Source: Lingula anatina | Lineage: Eukaryota; Animalia; Brachiopoda | NCBI GenBank assembly: GCA_051362555.1 | Contig: CM120646.1 | Location: 17,918,001-17,982,000 of the forward strand | Direction of reading: 5' to 3' | DNA length: 64,000 nucleotides | Shown: positions 4,452-30,653 of the stretch, one piece after another | Position numbering within the stretch: position 1 is the first letter of the stretch | How the letters are laid out: each line of letters opens with the position of its first letter | The notes under the pieces: generated by a model | The model's database searches: none | The model's input: only the letters and a program-made list of their open reading frames with translations | What the model was told of the DNA's origin: nothing | Made by a program: the position numbers and the translations under genes

Positions 4452-4997
4452 TTACTTAGAACCAGATGTCAATTTTTGAACCAAAACTTGCTTTAAGTCT
4501 TTTGTAGCTTTCTCAAGCAATTCAATCTTAGCTTGCAGTTCTGAATTTTCCTTTGCCAGGCGAACAGCTTCTTCTTCCATTTCAATGTATTTGTTTTTAC
4601 GCTGTTCACGGGAGCGTTTGGAAGCAATATTATTCTTTCGCCTTCTTTCTCCATATCTATCATTGCTTCCAGATGCAGTGGTTGTTACAGATTCAGTGTC
4701 ACTTTCAGATGTCACGCTGTTCACTTTTGCTCTCTTTGTGACAATATCTGATGTCACACTGTCAGTTTTTCTCTTTTTTCCACGCGAGTAATCATGATCA
4801 ATTGTAGAATTGGAATCTGTGCTGTCAGAGTCATTGTGATCCACCTCTGCTGAAATGTCGGCCAAATCTACAGTGCCAAAGCTTTCACTGGACTGGCTAG
4901 GTTCAGTTACTATGGTAACATTGTCAATAGTTGGGACTAACTCGTGTGCCTCAGATGTGGATGTTTCAGTGTTGCTTTGTTCAACTGGCATGGTGTT
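4452..4997 (-). CDS. bZIP transcription factor (PAR/C-EBP-like), last coding exon containing the basic region and leucine zipper
   Basis: RYGERRRKNNIASKRSREQRK basic region (invariant N..R) followed by M/L heptads; ctttcag| acceptor at 4998-4999, phase 0; TAA at 4452-4454. Confidence 0.92.
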   Translation of the reverse strand, partial: NTMPVEQSNTETSTSEAHELVPTIDNVTIVTEPSQSSESFGTVDLADISAEVDHNDSDSTDSNSTIDHDYSRGKKRKTDSVTSDIVTKRAKVNSVTSESDTESVTTTASGSNDRYGERRRKNNIASKRSREQRKNKYIEMEEEAVRLAKENSELQAKIELLEKATKDLKQVLVQKLTSGSK

Positions 4998-5188: not shown

Positions 5189-5403
5189 CTGTTCAATGTA
5201 TTTAGACAAATCAGCAAAGTCATCCAGAAATTCGGTCTCATTAAATAACCAGTCATTTTCAAAGTCATCAGAAGCCGCCTCTACTGAGGTGTCAGGGTCT
5301 GGTCCCTCCTTTAACACTGTCTGCTTCATACAAGTCATTAAGAGGTCGTCACATTCTTCATCAGCAAATAGATCCAATTTCAATGTTTCTTTAAGGGAAT
5401 CAC
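5189..5403 (-). CDS. bZIP factor, middle coding exon (acidic: DSLKETLKLDLF...DWLFNETEFLDDFADLSKYIEQ)
   Basis: ttttag| acceptor and CAG|gtagg donor; phases 1 and 0 join both neighbours in frame; acidic-hydrophobic, activation-domain-like sequence. Confidence 0.85.
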
Positions 5404-6473
5404 CTAAAATGATAAAAATTAATTTTTATAATAAGTGTTTTTAAACAATTATGTACTTAATTAAATGTGTTAATGTTTAAGTTAAATACCATTTCTTTCA
5501 GGAATCACAAAATTCAGCAAAAATGGAAAACGACTTCACTTATGAAAAAGAAAATGAAAGCAAATTTTTTTTAAAAATCACTGCATGTGCTACCCTTGCA
5601 ATGTTATCTTGTTTTTTCTGTTAAATATTTCCAAAAAGTAGGTAAAATAAAATTTGAAAAAAAAAAGAAAGAGAAGAAGCATAAATCTACCTTTAGTTGC
5701 ACACATTTCAGCTTATTGTGAAATTTCCTAAGTACCACTGCATATATATATACCAGACCCTGAGTTAAAACCTGTTTTGCTTAGGACAGCTACATTTTGA
5801 TTGAAATTGCTGACTATGGTGAAATTACTGATATACCCAAACTGATGCAATGTTCCAGAAATAGGCATGATTGAACTCTGACCTATTTCATGTCCTGGGA
5901 CTTTGCTAACCTGGACTGATTTAGAATGACATAAGGGGCCTTGTTGCTAGAGTGGCTATTGATTTATTGATAAGGACTTGCTGATAACAATGAGATTTCA
6001 GGTGGTGGTGCAATACCTTCATCACGTTCTGAGCATGCACGAACTTGCTAACATCCGCCCCTTCAGGGAAATATTGACTCGAAAGCATAAACATGCCTGG
6101 GCAAGCCATTTATGTTTTTTTCAACCGATATTTCTCTTTATATCAATCATCATTTTAATAGAGGTACAGGTAGATCAACCTGTAAGACTTGCTTAACTTT
6201 GCATCAAGTAAAGGCTTTTTTTTTAGGAATGTGGCATTAGTATGTCTAAGGAAAGCATTTTGATTTTTTGTTCAGAATAATCATTTTGTCATGTATAATG
6301 ACAGTCAAAGGTTTTAAAATAGCACTTTTCCTATAATTGTTTCTTTTTGGTAAAAATAAAGCTCTTTTCTTCCCAACATTCTCCATTTTTTTATCCAGTA
6401 TATTCCCCTCTCCCTAATTATCCACTCTAATAACTTTTAACTCAAGATATACCAAAGATCAAACTTTACTTAC

Positions 6474-6789
6474 TTGGGTTAAATAGGCCACTCGTCTTCT
6501 GCACTGAACGTGCGTAGATCGAGGAACTGTCCAAGGCCTCCGCATCCCCATAACTCAACAGCGTGGCCTCCAAGGTCGTCCACGCCTCCTGGTCTAGGCC
6601 AGTCAGGGTATCGGTGGTGGTTGTGTCCACTGCTTGGCTTGTGCCACTTGAGGGCTTGACCATGACTGGTGCTAAAATCTCGGTCACCAGAGTCTCCTTC
6701 ATCACTGGAGATGTCTCCCAAATTGGAGACGCCTGAGGCGTCTCCCAAGAGGGAGACATTTCCCCCTTGGCCCCTACCCTTCCTATCAT
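6474..6789 (-). CDS. bZIP factor, first coding segment from the first in-frame AUG (MIGRVGAKGEMSP...GLFNP); spliced product 358 aa
   Basis: A|gtaagt donor (phase 1) joins exon 5403 in frame; first in-frame ATG at 6789; frame stays open upstream to 6966, so the true start is uncertain. Confidence 0.75.
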
Positions 6790-6823
6790 CGCTGCTGGAT
6801 CCTTGATTTCGTAAGAGGTACAT
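6479..6823 (-). promoter_or_regulatory. Overlapping uORF (114 codons, -1 frame relative to the bZIP CDS)
   Basis: ATG in TCAAAC-ATG context (A at -3), 34 nt upstream of the main ATG; open to TAA at 6479-6481. Confidence 0.7.
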
Positions 6824-6890
6824 GTTTGACTTGGTGAAACGTTGTAATCAAATGTGGAAATTGTACTCTCTGTTGGACTGGGTGTTAAGT

Positions 6891-6905
6891 TCAAATTAGG
6901 TTCAT
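6891..6905 (-). promoter_or_regulatory. Short uORF (MNLI*) in the bZIP leader
   Basis: ATG AAC CTA ATT TGA read on the - strand. Confidence 0.65.
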
Positions 6906-7037
6906 CAAGTTCAGACAACAATTCTTCAAAGTTGTTGAACTGGAGTGAAATGGTGACCGCGGTCGGTTACCACTTTAAATCAAAACTGGGATGGGCGTGT
7001 GTGTGTGTGAGGTGGGGGTGTTAATGTCACCCACAAA

Positions 7038-7043
7038 TTACAT
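7038..7043 (-). promoter_or_regulatory. Start-stop element (ATG TAA) in the bZIP leader
   Basis: First ATG of the predicted mRNA; exon 2 starts at 7126 after a tttttacag acceptor. Confidence 0.55.
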
Positions 7044-7465
7044 CAATCGAAAGTCTCTTTCTCTCTCTGGACGCCGCTGCTGGCGATGGGGGCCCCTTGC
7101 CGGGTGTTAACCTCTCCGTTTCGTTACTGTAAAAATCAAAATTAAGATATTTTACAAATTGGATACATTTCACACGGTATTCATTTGTACAAACAGGGTT
7201 GTTTTGTCGAATTATCTTGAATTATCAGAGTAAAATATGCTGTGTTGTCAAGATTATTTGGAATAAAACACCGACATGTTAGTAACGCCAGCCGGTTTTG
7301 ATTGGATCGAATGTATCAGTTTGTTTTGTCCTTAATTCCAAGGAAAATTCAAAATAATACATCAAGTTGTAAAAGACTGAAATTATTCTATCAGTTATGC
7401 AACATATTACTTAATTACTATAATGTATAATGTTAAATTTCCTCATGAAATCAACCACATCTCAC

Positions 7466-7640
7466 CTCTCTCGCCTCTCTAGATGGTGATTGCACCACCA
7501 GCTGCAAGGTGTATATATACTGGCAGCATCACGTCCCAGTTTAGCACATGATGTCACTGGTAACCAATCAGAAGCTTGCTGAGTGATAAATTTAGACTTT
7601 GCGTATTGCGGTCAATGATGTCAATTTCGACCAATCGGGG
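7466..7640 (-). promoter_or_regulatory. Core promoter and short non-coding exon 1 (about 7490-7466) of the bZIP gene
   Basis: TATATATA at 7512-7519 about 25-30 nt before the putative TSS; GAG|gtgag donor at 7465; CCAAT boxes at 7564 and 7631; TGATGTCA CRE-like sites at 7549 and 7616. Confidence 0.65.
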
Positions 7641-8399
7641 CACTTCCTTCCCAGAGGTGTGGATTCCTTTGTGATGGCTTTGCCTTCAATAGGATTCACC
7701 CCGTCAGTCAAGCACGGTAACTAATGGAGAACTTCGACACTTAAAACCTGCACTTTGTAGATGGTTTTTAATTTTCTAAACATGTTTCCACAATTTTATA
7801 ATTTGAGAAACGTTGATTAAAAATGCAAATATGATAATTTATTATTGTTCTTTTATTGATACTAATGCACATTAATTTGATATTATCTAACAATTAATTT
7901 TTTTTTTTTTATTTGAACAGTTTTCCAGCATTTTAATAACAGTGCACAACTGCACGCCTTCTCCCTTCACCATCTTATACCGTTTTAAATCTGGCATTTT
8001 CTGGCATTTTAAATCTGAGAATATTATTCAAAACAATTAATTTTACTCACATTTGTTTCTTTTATTTGAATTGTTTTGATTATATTTTAAATATGCATGG
8101 GCATTGATATTGTGCAAATCTGATAACAATAGGCTAAAATTTCTTTACCAGTGTGATGTTAATTATATGCTGAATTAATTAACTCTTGATATATATTTCC
8201 TTAGATTTATATATGAATAATTAGTGCTATTACGTGAAAAGATACAGGCCATTTTTAAGGTGGGTGTCTTTATTCAATGGTTTCAGTTAATATCTTATTT
8301 TGGTTACATTTAAGTGATACCATAATTATCTAACAATGCTGCGTGTATGAACATTAAATTTATTCGGAGTACAACATTTGCTTCGTCGTCAAGTGTTAA

Positions 8400-12081: not shown

Positions 12082-12296
12082 GGCTGTATTCCCAGAGCTT
12101 TTAGATTGATCTATCCTCGCGGGTAGTCTCACTAGATTACTGTCAGATAATCCGGCTTAAATGTCCGTCCCGCCTACTACAAGCTATAAGGGGGTAATTA
12201 ACTTTCGTGTCCACCCGGCTGACAGCTATTTAACGTGAACCCCCAGGGAGTAAGGTCGATCTTAAGTAGATCGATCTAATCTCTGGAAATGGGGTC
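12082..12296 (+). mobile_element. MITE, about 215 bp (PIF/Harbinger-like), copy 1
   Basis: Closely similar along its length to 43397-43612; degenerate TIR ending CTCTGGAAATGGGGTC; flanked by ATA on both sides. Confidence 0.75.
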
Positions 12297-24306: not shown

Positions 24307-24672
24307 AAAGAACATGAAAGAAGGGAAAAATGTTTAAGAAACTGATATGATTTTTTGTTGGACAAGGGTTAGATTTAAGGAAAACTCACGTGCAGTATCT
24401 TAGTCAAAACACAGATAGGAATGGATTTATGCATATATAAGATTCGAGTTTTGAGAAATATTAGCTTGATGTTATGATTGAATCTGTTACTTGAATAACA
24501 ATTCGGTAAGTAAATTTTGTCTCTAGGCATTTCCATTGCATAACATTTGCAGAGAGCAATTTCTGGTTTGGTTGCATCTGGCTCTCTCTTTTTATAGACA
24601 GTTGAGAGATTATTCATAAGTGTAGCATAAGACATAACAGTCAGAATGACCTTGGTTTATTACTCTTTGCAG

Positions 24673-24981
24673 ACATGGCAACAGCAACCACGTGTGAATA
24701 TTATGACTCCCAAGTAGAGAGCTTTAACACCACAGAGCACTGCGAGACTCCTGACACGGGGAAGAGGGTCCACTGCTATGCCTCGTGGAAGAACACCTCC
24801 CTGGAGTTCAAACTTTTGAAGAAGGGCTGCTGGTTGGACTACAGCGACTGCTATGGCAAGGAACAGTGCATTGAGAATAAAGATAAACCAGACAAGGATG
24901 TTTTCTTCTGCTGTTGTGACAGGGACATGTGTAATACTAATATCAGCCATGTTCCTTTACCTACCACACCAAAACCAACAG
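24673..24981 (+). CDS. ACVR2: Activin receptor type II, extracellular three-finger ligand-binding domain exon
   Basis: HCYASWKN...KKGCWLD...C..CCCDRDMCN Cys box typical of ActRII; ttgcag| and |gtgag boundaries. Confidence 0.95.
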
Positions 24982-25011
24982 GTGAGGGTCATGTAACACA
25001 CACACACACGT

Positions 25012-25086
25012 TTATGCAATGTGTTATGGATATTAGTTATGCAATATGTTATGGATATTAGTTATGCAATATGTTATGGATATTAG
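25012..25086. repeat. 25-bp tandem repeat, three copies
   Basis: Unit TTATGCAATATGTTATGGATATTAG (one substitution in copy 1). Confidence 0.9.
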
Positions 25087-26720
25087 TATTTTTGCAATTG
25101 TTACCATGATTTGTACCTGTGTGTTAGTTGTGTGCCTAGATATCCGTTGCCTTAGATTGGCTTAAAAATTGAACCAACTTAATGACAGTAGGTGTCTGGA
25201 CATGGGACTCACTCATTTGTCGTTCCTGCAAGGTCCTGGTATATGTGTATCATCTGAAGCATTCAGTTGGACTATGTTTTTAGATTGAATTTAGCCTGCT
25301 ATTGAACACAATGTGCCAGTTCCTAAAATGTGGATAGGACACCTCGGGGTTTTTTTATTCCTCCTATCTTTTTTCTACCCCAAGGCCATGGAGCAATTCA
25401 GACACCAAGTTAAGATGTTCTACCATTGTTGAAGGGGCATAAATCTTGAGGAACATTTTTTCATTATTATGATTATGAATATTACTATAATTATTATTGA
25501 TGTTTTTATATACCTTGTTGCAAAATTTGAATTAATTTGAAGAAAAATTAAATGTTCAAGAGATTTTTGATACTCAGACAAATCAAACAGATGTGATGCA
25601 TTTGCGTTAACCTAGAAACGATAAAAAGCCTGGCCCACCTCTAAAAGTGTGGTGTCTTCATACTTAGGCTGCAGTGCATCAGATATGTATCAATGCCATT
25701 ACCTCCTATAACCACTCCTTATTATCCAGATACTGGTTTTACCAGGGCCCCCAACCTATGCCCTTAGAATGGATAATGTATTTCCTAATCTAGATGTGCT
25801 TTAGGAGGAGGGCACTACTTTCACAAGAACAAGATTTTAAATCTGATATCAAGTTTTTTTTTTCAAGCTGAAATATGTGGTCCCTGGTAAACAGTACCTG
25901 CACTCGCGCACCAGCTCTTATATCTCTAACCAGTTAATGTTTTTACTTTTCAAAACCTTTTACTCTTGAAATAGAACATATCTGCATCATGTCTTTTTTT
26001 TATTGTTAAACAAAAGGGAGGAAAGTTGATAATGATCTCACAGTACGTAACTTAAGAGTGCATTTGCCCTCTCTGATGGATCTGTAGATAACCATCAGTA
26101 GTGTGGGTTACTGCCCAAAATTGGTATGCCAAGGGAGTATTCAGTGCACTTATCGCCTGCTGCAGACTTTTCTGTAGAGGAGTCGCTGGCTAAAGCGTGA
26201 AAATGAATGCAGTTTCTGCTTGGCTCTTAGTGTATTTAATTTTGCAATATTGAGTTGCTTGACTTGCTTCAATTTTCCCAGATATTAAAGTCTGTTTAAA
26301 GTTACCTTTAAGGTCCCATAGTGGGATTTTCTTTTATTTTTTTATGAAGGTCATTGAACAATTGTGAAGACCTACATTCATACCTTTTACTTAAAAAATA
26401 TGTTCAGTAATTGTCGAAGTAGTTTTACAAAGATAGATAAAAAGGTAAATGTGTAAGCTGGGAAAGGAAAAAAGGCAAAAGAAGGGCCTACTGCATATTC
26501 TAAAAAAAATTATCTTTCATACTTATGTGCACCATAGAGCTTTGGTCTTTCCCAGTCACTCACATGTCTGATGCTCAGGTTTTGCAACCAAAACATCCAC
26601 TTTTAGGAAAAAGGTTAAAACGGGCCCTTATTGCAGCTGTGTTATTTACTTCTGACCACTGGGTTGTATATGAATAACCTTGGAATGAGTATGTACATTT
26701 ATTCTTGTATTGTCTTCTAG

Positions 26721-27439
26721 GGTCTCCAGTGGTTTCCATTGCCCCAGTGTACCAGAATCAGCAGCTGATTAAAACCTTGATCTTTTCCCTCGTTCCTCTT
26801 CTTGCCATAACCATCGTGGTCGTCATCACCTTCTTCCTGTGGAGGCGCCACAAGCAGATAATGTATCACCAACAGATCCCCACGGACGAGCCTCTGCAGG
26901 AACCTCCGTCGCCTCTTATGAGCCTGCGACCATTACAGCTACTTGAGCTGAAAGCTAGGGGGCGCTTCGGCACTGTTTGGAAGGCCCAGTTATTGAATGA
27001 GTTTGTGGCAGTGAAAATCTTCCCTATACAAGACAAACAGTCCTGGATGAGGGAACAGGAAGTGTATAGTTTACCATTGATGAAACACGAGAATATTCTC
27101 AAGTTCACAGCCGCGGAGAAAAGAGGAGATAATCTCAACACTGAACTGTGGCTGATCACAGAGTTTCACGAGCTTGGCTCGTTGTGTGACTACCTTAAAG
27201 GGAACCTCATTGCATGGAATGACATGCTAAAGATGGCAGAGACAATGGCCAGAGGCCTTGCATATTTACACGAGGACATCCCCGGGGTGAAGGGGAGCGA
27301 TGGGAAACCAGCCGTGGCACATAGGGACTTTAAAAGCAAAAATGTGCTCATGAAGAAAGACATGTCTTGTTGCATCGCAGATTTTGGGCTAGCAATGAAG
27401 TTCGACCCAGGTAGCAGCCCAGGGGAGACACATGGACAG
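26721..27439 (+). CDS. ACVR2: Activin receptor type II, transmembrane segment and kinase N-terminal part
   Basis: TM helix followed by KARGRFG, VAVKIF, HRDFKSKN and IADFG; no GS box, so type II; canonical splice sites. Confidence 0.97.
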
Positions 27440-27712
27440 GTAAAGACTGGGTGCCTTATTGGATAATTTGTTCGGTTTAACCAGCAAGAGTAGCTAGCTA
27501 TTTTTGTAGCACTGTACTATGAGTAAAACGTGCCCTGAATACATTTTGCCTCTCTCTGAATTGTAAGTCGTGATTTCTGCACTTTGTACTAAATTTATTG
27601 CACATGTAACATGCTAACAATTGCAAACAGTCCCTGCAAATTAACTTAGGAAATGGTTTGTTTTTAAAAATATATTTCATAGCTGGAGCATATGTTGTGG
27701 TTGCATGTGTTT

Positions 27713-27715
<3 letters not shown>

Positions 27716-27750
<35 letters not shown>
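27716..27750. repeat. (GA)n microsatellite
   Basis: Read directly. Confidence 0.95.
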
Positions 27751-27754
<4 letters not shown>

Positions 27755-28454
27755 GGGGGGAGGGGGGTAAGTTGAAAACATGCTTGGGGGGGGGGGCTTG
27801 ATAAATTAATAGATTAAAAAGGAAATAATGAGGGTACAACAGTCCTCACACCCATGTCCCAGTAAGAGAAAAAAAATTAAAAGAACAAATGCCTCATTGC
27901 TGTGGGCAACCTTTCCAATAATAGCTCTGGGTGCATAAAAGCAATAAACTGTTAAGAAAACATTCGTACTTTTCATTTCCTGTACATCTTTTTTATTTGT
28001 CTTAAGTCTTAATCCAGAATGGCTTAAACTTGATTCCAGCTGGCAGATTTTGGGACTGGTTTTCATAAAAGTAAAAAAAAAAATGCAACTTGTGATAGAT
28101 GTTGTTCATGTTCTTTTTTTATCAACTGGTGTAATTTTTTGTTGAAGCATGATCTGTGTAGGTCAAGGAAAGCATGCTATTTACTGGTCTGAAACGCCCA
28201 AACAAATGGCCAAGTATCAAATTATAATGGCCAAAAAAGAAGAAAAAATTATCTTCTGTAATAATTGATTAATTAAAAAGAGAGACAAGGATCACAGATG
28301 GACAGCAGACAAGTTTACACACACACACACACACACACACTTTTAGTTCATAGAGTAAATTCCTTTTTCATCTTTAACTGAAAAGTCGTGGGTGGATTAA
28401 ATCTGGAAAAATGGGTTTCCATTTGTATTAATGCTTTCTTCATTTTGATTGCAG

Positions 28455-28593
28455 GTTGGGACACGCAGATACATGGCTCCCGAGGTACTGGAGGGCGCTA
28501 TTAACTTTAACAGAGACGCCTTTATGCGTATTGACATGTACGCATGTGGCTTAGTATTGTGGGAAATCGTGTCAAGGTGTTCAGCAGCAGATG
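28455..28593 (+). CDS. ACVR2: Activin receptor type II kinase exon ([18 protein letters not shown]...)
   Basis: [17 protein letters not shown] is characteristic of ActRII; ttgcag| and |gtaag boundaries. Confidence 0.97.
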
Positions 28594-28827
28594 GTAAGTT
28601 GGCTGCCACAATTGCTATGGCCTACAAACACCACTCATTTCATTTCATTATTTTTTCCACCCAAGATATATTTCAGAAATTTGAAAAAAAAAATTCTTCA
28701 CGACATAATCTCAACACCCTTTTCCAAACTTTTGTATAATCATTCACAGGTAGTTATTACTTGTACAGTGTTGGGTGTCCTATAAAACCATTTGTGGTTC
28801 ATGTTTATGGTTTGTTTTGGCTACCAG

Positions 28828-28958
28828 GCCCTGTAGAGGACTACCAGCTCCCCTTTGAAGATGAGGTCGGTCAGCATCCCACTTTGGAGGATATGCAGGA
28901 TGCTGTGGTCCACAAGAAAGTCAGGCCAGCATTTAAAGAACACTGGTTAAAACATGGA
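28828..28958 (+). CDS. ACVR2: Activin receptor type II kinase exon ([23 protein letters not shown]...)
   Basis: YxLPFE.E.GQHP motif; accag| and |gtgag boundaries. Confidence 0.95.
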
Positions 28959-30455
28959 GTGAGTATTGGAAACAGCTTTTTTAAAGAATTATAACTGAAA
29001 CTATCAGCATGAAAAATTTAAACACATGTGCCATACACAGCATCACGCTGCTCATTTCCGCAGTGATGAGTGGGACAAGAGATAGATTTGCTCCCAGCTA
29101 ATCCTGATCAGCATGTTCTGGTTGTTAAAATTTTGCCCACATAACCTGACTGGAAACGTAAGTTAACTGTTTCCTGTCTAAGTTGGCTCTGATGGGAACG
29201 GGCCTTATCAGCCTGTTACCTTGAACACTAGCAGGAGTCCTTCATTGAACTGTCCTTGTCAACAGCTCAAGGGTTAGAAATAGAGATAATCAGTGGCATT
29301 GGGACAAGAGGTCAGATTGGTTTAACCATTGATTCTTAGATAGATAACTAAACATATGAGAGTATGGATATTTTCATTTCCATTTGTTCAGTGGTGGCAT
29401 GGAGAACTGGTACTGCACTAAGTGCACTTGTCATGAATCTCTTGTAGTTTTGGTCCAAGGATGGTCCGTCTCCCAAAATATGAAAAGCAGTAAATCAAAA
29501 GGAACAGCTGCATATTTCAAGGCATATCTTGCTAATATTATGGCACGCACGCAGGCACTTACACTTACTCACCAATGAATTACGTAGTTGCATGCTGAGG
29601 TACATTTGGATGTAAATTCAACATATTTATGAAAAATAAATAGAATTTCAACTTGCTGAGGTCATTACATTAGTGTAACATCGTATTCAAACGTGACACA
29701 GAGTTTATTTTACTTTTTGATGTTGAAAGTCATTCTGAAGGTGGCGCCATAAGATTGTTGTTCTTTTACGTTATTGTTTTCTGTGTTATAGCCAAGTCAG
29801 TGTTATAAGTAAGATACACACTTAATTACATCCTAGTTCCTAAACTGAGTTCATTTTAGTAAAATAATGTATCACCGATAGCTTATAGGTTGGGGCTCTT
29901 TATATGTTTTTATGAGTTGATGGGAACTCTGAAATGCTAGTCCTTCAAATGAAACAATGAGATGAATTGATTGATTAATCATCTCATTGGAATATAACTT
30001 AAATAAAAAATAAGTGGTTCTTTAAATAGTCTGAATTTTATGTGTTCAGTGATCCCTCAGTATTGTGTGAATGATATCATGCAATTTTTAAAAAAATCTG
30101 AAAAATAAAAGAATTAGACTTACTGAGTCATGAAGTCTGTTTTTTAATAGAGGTGCAGTGTCTTTATTGCATTTTTATTATGCAATATCATGAACATTTA
30201 TTATGGGTTGTCAGGAACATGTTCTTTACCATTCGGGTTTTAGAATGCGATTATTTTAACAAATTTTTTTTTTTATGTTGGCTTAATGGTGGTGGTGGTG
30301 GGGGGGTGTGTTGGAAGAGACTGCTACTCCCCCTCTGCCCCCCAAATCCTCAACCAACACCTGTTTTTTGCAAATATATTGTCATCTTGTATTACAACTA
30401 TGATCTTGCTGTAATCAATCCTTTAACTCATACATTCTTGTCTTCATCTCTGCAG

Positions 30456-30653
30456 GGTTTGCAGGCATTCTGTGACACCATCGAGGAATGCTGGGACCAG
30501 GATGCAGAGGCACGTTTGTCAGCTGGTTGTGTCGAGGAGCGCATTTCACAACTTGTTCGCCTCACAGCCGCCAGCACCCCCCTACCTCAGACTGCCGTCA
30601 TCACCTCGAGTAATAATAATCCAGAAGTGACACAAAAAGAATCTAGCATCTGA
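30456..30653 (+). CDS. ACVR2: Activin receptor type II last exon (TIEECWDQDAEARLSAGCVEERI...KESSI*)
   Basis: Kinase subdomain XI; C-terminal PDZ-binding KESSI as in vertebrate ACVR2B; ctgcag| acceptor. Confidence 0.96.
   Translation, partial: GLQAFCDTIEECWDQDAEARLSAGCVEERISQLVRLTAASTPLPQTAVITSSNNNPEVTQKESSI

Follow-up and report, generated by a model that had tools for sequence, protein, structure and literature searches.

A candidate +1 frameshift site at the end of an overlapping reading frame in a C/EBP-like bZIP mRNA of Lingula anatina

How do ribosomes reach the main reading frame of an mRNA when its annotated start codon lies inside another, overlapping ORF? This question is raised by a bZIP gene on the minus strand of the 64,000-nucleotide stretch of Lingula anatina DNA analysed here (the window). 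The original prediction had pointed to a strong hairpin about one ribosome length downstream of the bZIP start codon and had read it as an element similar to the alphavirus downstream loop (DLP) or to a ribosome-queuing stem-loop, favouring start selection under stress. We investigated the hairpin, the gene and its homologues, and the conserved signals were found at the end of the overlapping ORF (ORF1).

Structure of the bZIP gene and its reading frames

The gene is a spliced and expressed C/EBP-like bZIP gene. Its C-terminal ORF carries a bZIP_2 domain and shows 99% identity with Lingula anatina LOC106170376, a 358-aa protein whose annotated start is AUG 6789. Two stranded RNA libraries gave almost all reads in one direction, fitting a minus-strand mRNA. 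The best solved-structure matches of the bZIP were C/EBP beta/alpha and NFIL3, with 0 ATF4 chains among the 37 structure matches up to E 10; the PDB presumably contains such a chain (1ci6 A). These sequence comparisons point to a C/EBP/NFIL3-like protein, not ATF4. The protein is likely a stress-response transcription factor. A [DE]HxY motif was found in 87 of 154 homologues, and the nearest Atlas clusters by features were nematode and arthropod bZIP proteins (0.95 and 0.94), a lead only. On the promoter side, two copies of ATTGG-N7-TGACATCA, a CCAAT box plus a CRE-like site with identical spacing, were seen at 7635-7616 and 7568-7549 (minus strand), together with TATATA at 7519 and TGGTGCAAT at 7497 (minus strand), the last of which we take to be one mismatch from a C/EBP-ATF element. 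The CCAAT/CRE-like/TATA region is possibly a stress-responsive or autoregulated promoter.

ORF1 and the bZIP frame overlap over 103 codons in Lingula, the bZIP frame being +1 to ORF1. Further in-frame bZIP AUGs are located at 6759, 6702 and 6663, and the start-stop and the short uORF upstream of ORF1 were unchanged across four RNA runs. The bZIP frame is also open above AUG 6789, where the in-frame AUU 6951, in a strong context, is a possible non-AUG start. The stretch 6966-6790 (minus strand) reads like coding sequence (F-N-N-F-E-E-L-L-S-E-L-D-E-P), and the segment F-E-E-L-L-S-E-L-D-E-P resembles an ORF1 motif, a lead only; the ORF1 profile gave no match in the open frame upstream of AUG 6789. 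The substitution pattern of 6966-6790 gave a likelihood ratio of 1.3, with 0 listed changes between 6907 and 6975 in the four RNA runs. No Pfam family was found for ORF1 or for the N-terminal exon.

Elsewhere in the window, the exons of one gene were seen at 24606-30653 (plus strand), by eye an apparent activin type II receptor kinase gene, as we presume. Two near-identical 57-nt stretches at 12237 and 43553 (plus strand) fold well and probably represent a dispersed repeat.

Table 1 Coordinates of the features of the bZIP gene in the window
Feature	Position	Strand	Remarks
Exon 1, short	7466..7490	-	3' end from read ends; 5' end assumed from TATA box 7519-7514
Exon 2	6474..7126	-	RNA joints; donor 5 nt past ORF1 stop
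Exon 3	5189..5403	-	RNA joints; acidic segments of bZIP-frame protein
Exon 4, coding part	4452..4997	-	DHDY motif 4799-4788, bZIP_2 about 4661-4509; RNA joints
Start-stop AUG-UAA	7038..7043	-	
Open bZIP frame above AUG 6789	6790..6966	-	59 codons; AUU 6951 in GUCACC-AUU-U
4-codon uORF M-N-L-I-stop	6891..6905	-	
ORF1 (overlapping ORF)	6479..6823	-	114 codons, -1 frame relative to bZIP, ends F-S-A-E-D-E-W-P-I-stop
Annotated start of the 358-aa protein	6787..6789	-	bZIP frame; position not conserved in homologues
Hairpin	6707..6763	-	57 nt, 21 bp, -37.7 kcal/mol, two related 27-nt units
Predicted +1 shifty-stop site	6478..6508	-	UGG 6490-6488, CCU 6487-6485, AUU 6484-6482, UAA 6481-6479, C 6478; putative function

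Stability, origin and conservation of the hairpin

The sequence and coordinates of the minus-strand hairpin 6763-6707 were as first described, and its MFE fold was identical to the two 9-bp stems with a GGA/UCC extension that had been claimed: the GGA/UCC pairs, then an A-C mismatch, a first 9-bp stem (6759-6751 pairing with 6719-6711), a 5x5 internal loop, and a second 9-bp stem (6745-6737 pairing with 6733-6725) closed by a UCA loop. The base is just 3 bp, followed by the mismatch. The claimed distance was also confirmed: counted from the A of AUG 6789, the hairpin begins at 26 nt with GGA, or at 30 nt with AUG 6759. It lies within the overlapping ORF 6823-6479, and AUG 6759 is buried in the stem. 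Comparison with codon-shuffled controls, which the original prediction had proposed, gave 0 of 3000 synonymous bZIP-frame recodings as stable as the hairpin (z -4.4), and the same count was obtained with 3000 overlapping-frame synonymous recodings (z -6.4) and with 2000 dinucleotide shuffles (z -7.4). In a scan of both strands with a step of 4, the hairpin was the most stable 57-mer of the 64-kb window; the 141-nt context around it gave a z of merely -2.0. The idea of two alternative folds did not stand, as the fold into two small hairpins had -26.4 kcal/mol and a pair probability of at most 0.001 in three reference contexts. Being 11 kcal/mol weaker and essentially unpopulated, it is no real equilibrium alternative or switch.

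The units 6760-6734 and 6733-6707 are each self-complementary. Aligned as a direct repeat they agree at 18/27 positions, aligned as an inverted repeat at 22/27, and two such related units placed side by side fold back automatically. Random swaps of the 9 inter-unit differences gave -38.3 +/- 2.8, with 968 of 3000 as stable as the hairpin, and 146 of 512 possible ancestral 27-nt units were equally stable upon simple duplication. Perfect duplicates of either present-day unit were 8-10 kcal/mol weaker than the observed hairpin, which leaves room for selection or for a template-switch origin.

We then considered the reading in which the hairpin was selected, in Lingula only, to hold scanning ribosomes over AUG 6789 in the manner of a DLP, or to queue them in the manner of the human ATF4 stem-loop SL3. 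Such a route would be independent of frameshifting, responsive to eIF2alpha phosphorylation and able to coexist with a frameshift. The stable stem at 26-30 nt from the AUG, located in the uORF/CDS overlap of a bZIP mRNA, is shared with these elements (PMC4872096; bioRxiv 10.1101/2023.07.12.548609), the base of the alphavirus DLP stem being described at 27-31 nt from the AUG (PMC4872096). This part of the original prediction was retained, whereas spacer composition and conservation spoke against it. DLP spacers are described as A-rich and G-poor (PMC4872096), unlike the G-rich Lingula spacer between AUG and stem (12 G and 7 A of 23 nt); the gene is not ATF4, and SL3 is reported to be inhibitory to ATF4 output (bioRxiv 10.1101/2023.07.12.548609). 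A G-quadruplex in the same spacer was not favoured, one G-run being broken in a diverged Lingula lineage.

A hairpin comparable to that of Lingula was present at the matching place in 0 of the 23 homologous loci described in the next section, the nearest relatives in this comparison being distant save for the diverged Lingula lineage, and absence from orthologues had been named beforehand as an outcome against the hairpin's role. The best upstream 57-mers reached z <= -5 in 5/24 loci and the control CDS windows in 4/24, which ruled out an enrichment of strong hairpins in ORF1. Rfam gave over 6300-7700 a chance-level match alone (E 0.18, below gathering).

The diverged lineage, about 4-5% different, was seen in two of the four RNA runs over 6640-7126. 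Among the RNA runs labelled as this species, X8 and X10 diverge from the window by about 4-5%, unlike X2, X4, X5 and X6, and X8/X10 probably belong to a cryptic Lingula lineage. Two fixed changes of the diverged lineage fall inside the hairpin, one synonymous in the internal loop and one Thr-to-Ser. The latter, the sole change in a stem, converts an inner A-U pair to U-U with an unchanged partner and is thus uncompensated. The variant hairpin still had -34.7, and its fold was lost in 1/3 contexts (6800-6660, pair probability 0.08). The hairpin has 2 fixed changes over its 57 nt and the flanks have 6 over 67 nt and 4 over 87 nt, which is in the direction expected for a role, though the numbers are too small for a test. 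Between 6640 and 6805, 13 single changes were distributed 4/2/7 over the bZIP-frame codon positions, with a likelihood ratio of 35 for bZIP-frame against ORF1-frame selection and of just 3 against neutrality. The upper overlap evolves therefore more like bZIP-frame than overlapping-ORF coding sequence, and AUG 6789 may be used. This pattern, the unchanged start-stop and short uORF and the lack in Lingula of the 3' stem described below are in favour of a role of the hairpin; the equally stable duplication nulls, the uncompensated change, the G-rich spacer and the homologues are against it. We consider a selected, Lingula-only role unlikely and the DLP reading weak; the hairpin is likely a Lingula-specific by-product of a duplicated self-complementary 27-nt unit, presumably without function.

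The hairpin centre 6744-6721 (minus strand) encodes E-T-P-Q-A-S-P-I, which in our view resembles a GSK3/Fbw7 phosphodegron. The natural Thr-to-Ser change keeps the phospho-acceptor, and no similar motif was seen in the homologous proteins.

Conservation of the ORF1 end in homologous loci

In a homologue search over 1.84 billion representatives, 417 relatives were found with E <= 0.001, and the best 150 of 417 were used; the named members among the 30 clusters looked up were from Solemya, Mytilus and Tubulanus. The N-termini of the homologues have R-x-x-Q-K-x-[SCG]-G-L-F-[DN] in common, with a fixed Met absent, a pattern that we read as an imprint of the other frame. The DNA set contained 58 loci plus the window, 37 of them with W-x-x-stop in the -1 frame inside the bZIP-open stretch. 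From these 37 rows, 29 were kept and 8 dropped by eye, namely L018, L038, L050 and L052, without likeness, and the genomic group L048, L049, L051 and L053, for which the real site is located upstream of one more intron, as seen in L048, L049, L053 and L057. Removal of 5 near-duplicates left 24 loci (23 homologues and the window). The remaining 22 loci had no site, and most appeared too short or genomic. The W and the stop were part of the selection rule, the other consensus positions were not. The loci are deeply diverged, with a median end branch of 1.0 change per column in a quick tree with 12/27 forks open.

ORF1 has a length of 53-89 codons in the homologues and of 53-114 when Lingula is included. 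Most homologues possess an L-[DE]-E-L-V-D-x-L-D-I-like segment about 25-35 codons before the stop. Lingula ORF1 is without this LDELVDLLDI-like segment, and its last 11 residues were the top match of a profile from the 23 homologous ORF1 peptides. An Atlas search with a homologous ORF1 (L011) gave no usable match. ORF1 starts at the first AUG of the contig in 19/22 homologues, so that an AUG upstream of the overlapping ORF is absent there, six of these having a leader of <105 nt in the contig. The ATF4 layout with a short uORF before the overlapping ORF, present in Lingula, is thus not seen in these 19/22 homologues, and ATF4-type delayed reinitiation is probably not the design of the family. 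Conserved structure in the last 30 ORF1 codons was not general (mean z -0.7; 6/24 below -2, four of them from one clade). Within ORF1, a long stem particular to one clade was seen in L005, L024, L031, L034 and L044. It spans 79 to 30 nt ahead of the Trp codon and pairs GCUGGAUAUC with GAUAUYCAGC; relative to ORF1 recodings, z was -2.5 to -5.6 in the four non-redundant loci.

The end of Lingula ORF1, UGG-CCU-AUU-UAA-C, is located 230 nt downstream of the hairpin, and the consensus of the 24 non-redundant loci was G-UGG-CCU-NUU-stop-C. The G before UGG was present in 24/24 loci, Pro in 22/24, the UU of the last codon in 24/24 and the C after the stop in 22/24. The last residue varied (I in 16, V in 4, L in 2, F in 2), as did the stop (UGA in 14, UAA in 9, UAG in 1). 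Given the residues and the pooled codon use, the chance of UU in all 24 loci is about 1e-10 with kinship ignored; GUU, CUU and UUU are each found on separate tree branches, and NUU occurred in 30/37 of all rule-matching rows, the 8 dropped ones included. In a test at the protein level, x-G-[LPQIV]-F was found within the first 130 residues of 65/154 homologous proteins, followed by D, N or S in 63/65 and preceded by S, G, C or R in 62/65, as the stop and the Trp codon in the -1 frame demand these residues.

The same codons are known from other shift sites. Antizymes naturally shift at AUU-UGA, GUU-UGA and UUU-UGA, RF2 uses CUU-UGA, which is active in mammalian cells too, and shifting is favoured by a C after the stop, the human antizyme site being UGG-UGC-UCC-UGA (PMC1874602). 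Antizymes are also described with a conserved W two codons before the shift codon (PMC5009743), and their stop is given as UGA in about 97%. We found no description of the present site among open-licence papers.

Downstream of the stop, at a distance of 10-11 nt, a stem with 8 or more uninterrupted pairs begins in 11/24 loci under strict criteria and in 16 by eye with bulges. The expectation was 0.4-0.5 loci, with at most 3 in 200 recodings, and none of the other offsets from 13 to 100, outside 19-27, gave above 1 locus. The stem columns showed several pair types, the counts of which derive from a fit to pairing, and RNAalifold on a plain alignment of the 16 stem-bearing loci gave no consensus structure, the loop lengths being different. 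Lingula is without this stem (-4.1 kcal/mol, z +2.2). An IRE1-type cut in the stem loop was rejected, a CUGCAG loop being present in few loci and the database protein P0093 keeping the 5' arm of the stem (by eye).

Would the bZIP frame be entered at the stop or before it? The frame is open over the 30 codons before the stop in 24/24 loci (15.6 expected), the third frame in 2 (2.6 expected), and L054 and L025 keep G-L/I-F in the bZIP frame despite different ORF1 residues and codons. The bZIP frame may thus be entered upstream of the stop, and the conservation of G-L-F may account for part of the NUU conservation. Ribosomes on ORF1, slowed by the conserved C-terminal peptide and the 3' stem, would in such a case pile up and slip +1 somewhere in the last at least 30 codons of the overlap, not at the stop, similarly to C. 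elegans zip-2, for which a shift at any point along the 121 codons of overlap is proposed (PMC11831180). Against this, substitutions in 11 related pairs favoured ORF1 third positions upstream of the site (49/55/101) and bZIP-frame third positions downstream (115/96/180), the upstream part thus following ORF1 and not the bZIP frame, and the fixed 10-nt stem spacing and the NUU-stop-C set point to the stop itself. We judge such a distributed shift rather improbable.

The position of the bZIP-frame AUGs is not conserved, the codons being found at varied distances between 103 codons upstream and 93 codons downstream of the site. Some bZIP-frame AUG lies upstream of the site in about 21-22/24 loci, four of them in Lingula. 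A stalling uORF with leaky scanning has therefore to be weighed, in which ORF1 would be an inhibitory uORF for a conserved peptide, stalling at W-P-x-stop, and the bZIP frame would be translated by leaky scanning, near-cognate starts or reinitiation only. It fits the conservation of ORF1 at the peptide level, the occurrence in most loci of a bZIP-frame AUG upstream or 3-93 codons downstream, and the example of Drosophila Xrp1, which is described as repressed by an overlapping uORF and as needing main-ORF sequence for induction (PMC13268129). It leaves unexplained, however, the invariant UU under four residues and the constant +1 relation. Moreover, L004 and L008, within the 24, and the redundant L007 have no bZIP-frame AUG before the site, the next one in L004/L007 lying 70-79 codons past it. 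This AUG-free stretch is conserved in frame (9/16 changes at third positions, whole-codon indels), which the reading without frameshift does not explain either, the near-cognate codons there being mostly in weak contexts. We regard it as quite unlikely.

The ORF1 stop is followed by an intron after 5 nt in Lingula (6474/5403) and after 8 nt in the distant genomic loci L048, L049, L053 and L057, and AG-G at the Lingula intron position in many mRNA-like loci suggests an old intron. Since the ORF1 stop lies upstream of a later exon junction, the mRNA may be a target of nonsense-mediated decay, which is also discussed for zip-2 (PMC11831180). The proximity of this junction is also compatible with an RNA-level joining of ORF1 and bZIP frame, in which the stop would be removed through an alternative 5' splice site or through a cut similar to that of XBP1, and in P0093 (196 aa) ORF1 continues in frame into the bZIP part, the region of the site being absent. 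P0093 is, however, also short of about 100 other residues in its interior, so that it is possibly a faulty assembly and hence weak evidence; no such joint was present in 3 RNA runs over the gene and 4 over exon 2, and with a rough weight matrix 1/24 loci had a donor-like site in the phase needed for fusion. RNA-level joining is in our opinion highly improbable.

A model of the +1 shift and its relation to known systems

From the signals at the ORF1 end, we infer that the conserved control of this bZIP mRNA is probably a programmed +1 shift at the ORF1 stop, making a 369-aa ORF1-bZIP protein. In this model, translation would begin at AUG 6823 of ORF1 and proceed as far as F-x-x-E-D-x-W-P-I, where ribosomes would pause with AUU in the P site and the weak stop UAA-C in the A site. 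In a fraction of them, the peptidyl-tRNA would leave NUU, re-pair with the overlapping UUU and so carry translation on in the bZIP frame; in Lingula, a shift from AUU to UUU would give the 369-aa product with the junction W-P-I-N-P-S-D. The remaining ribosomes would release the ORF1 peptide. The stem-loop 10 nt past the stop may aid the pause in many relatives, and in Lingula, without it, initiation at AUG 6789 is possibly an additional route. If zip-2 and antizyme are taken as a guide, slowed elongation or termination (toxins, eIF5A/polyamine state) would be the most likely trigger.

The proposed site resembles that of antizymes in several respects: a short ORF1, whose end is overlapped by an ORF2 in +1 (PMC1874602, PMC5009743), a shift codon at the ORF1 stop from the AUU/GUU/UUU set with C after the stop (PMC1874602), UGG two codons before the shift codon and, putatively, lineage-specific 3' structures (PMC1874602, PMC5009743). 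The differences are that ORF2 encodes here a bZIP_2 transcription factor, so that the gene is not of the antizyme family, that the stop is UGA in 14/24 and UAA in 9/24, whereas that of antizymes is described as near-invariant UGA, that a simple stem begins 10 nt after the stop instead of the pseudoknot reported 3-5 nt after it, and that the ORF1 peptide is conserved here. Bacterial RF2 (prfB) CUU-UGA-C is similar in the re-pairing of NUU onto UUU at a weak stop followed by C, and different in being autoregulated by the RF2 level and UGA-specific (PMC1874602).

C. elegans zip-2 is also a bZIP gene with three upstream ORFs, the last of which, in the -1 frame, overlaps the main ORF over about 100-120 codons; the position of the main AUG is not conserved and the stop of the overlapping ORF lies upstream of a later intron (PMC11831180). 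Genetic evidence is reported for a +1 shift under elongation inhibition, fusion peptides not being detected (PMC11831180). The overlapping ORF of zip-2 ends in P-R-E-L-stop, in contrast with W-P-x-stop here (W-P-I-stop in Lingula), and in that account the shift has no mapped position and is considered to be distributed along the overlap, with conservation reported within Caenorhabditis only (PMC11831180). Xrp1 is a stress bZIP with the same kind of repression and main-ORF requirement, and the account considered here differs in proposing no frameshift (PMC13268129).

With somewhat less assurance than for the shift itself, we propose that the synthesis of a widespread animal family of C/EBP-class transcription factors (brachiopods, bivalves and nemerteans among the named members) depends on a programmed +1 frameshift that has been overlooked, located at an antizyme-like UGG-CCU-NUU-stop-C and accompanied by a conserved nascent peptide and a 3' stem-loop, that the database proteins are mis-started and that the site is a direct sensor of ribosome stress. 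To our knowledge, programmed frameshifts in animal chromosomal genes are rare, being limited to the antizymes and a handful of others. If confirmed, the present site would be a new regulatory case, a sharply defined +1 shifty stop deeply conserved in a transcription factor; signals like those of antizyme would be at work in an unrelated gene, and many annotated proteins would receive a corrected N-terminus. It would also provide a mapped site on which to test the sensing of attacks on translation through frameshifting, an idea that was raised for zip-2 without a site.
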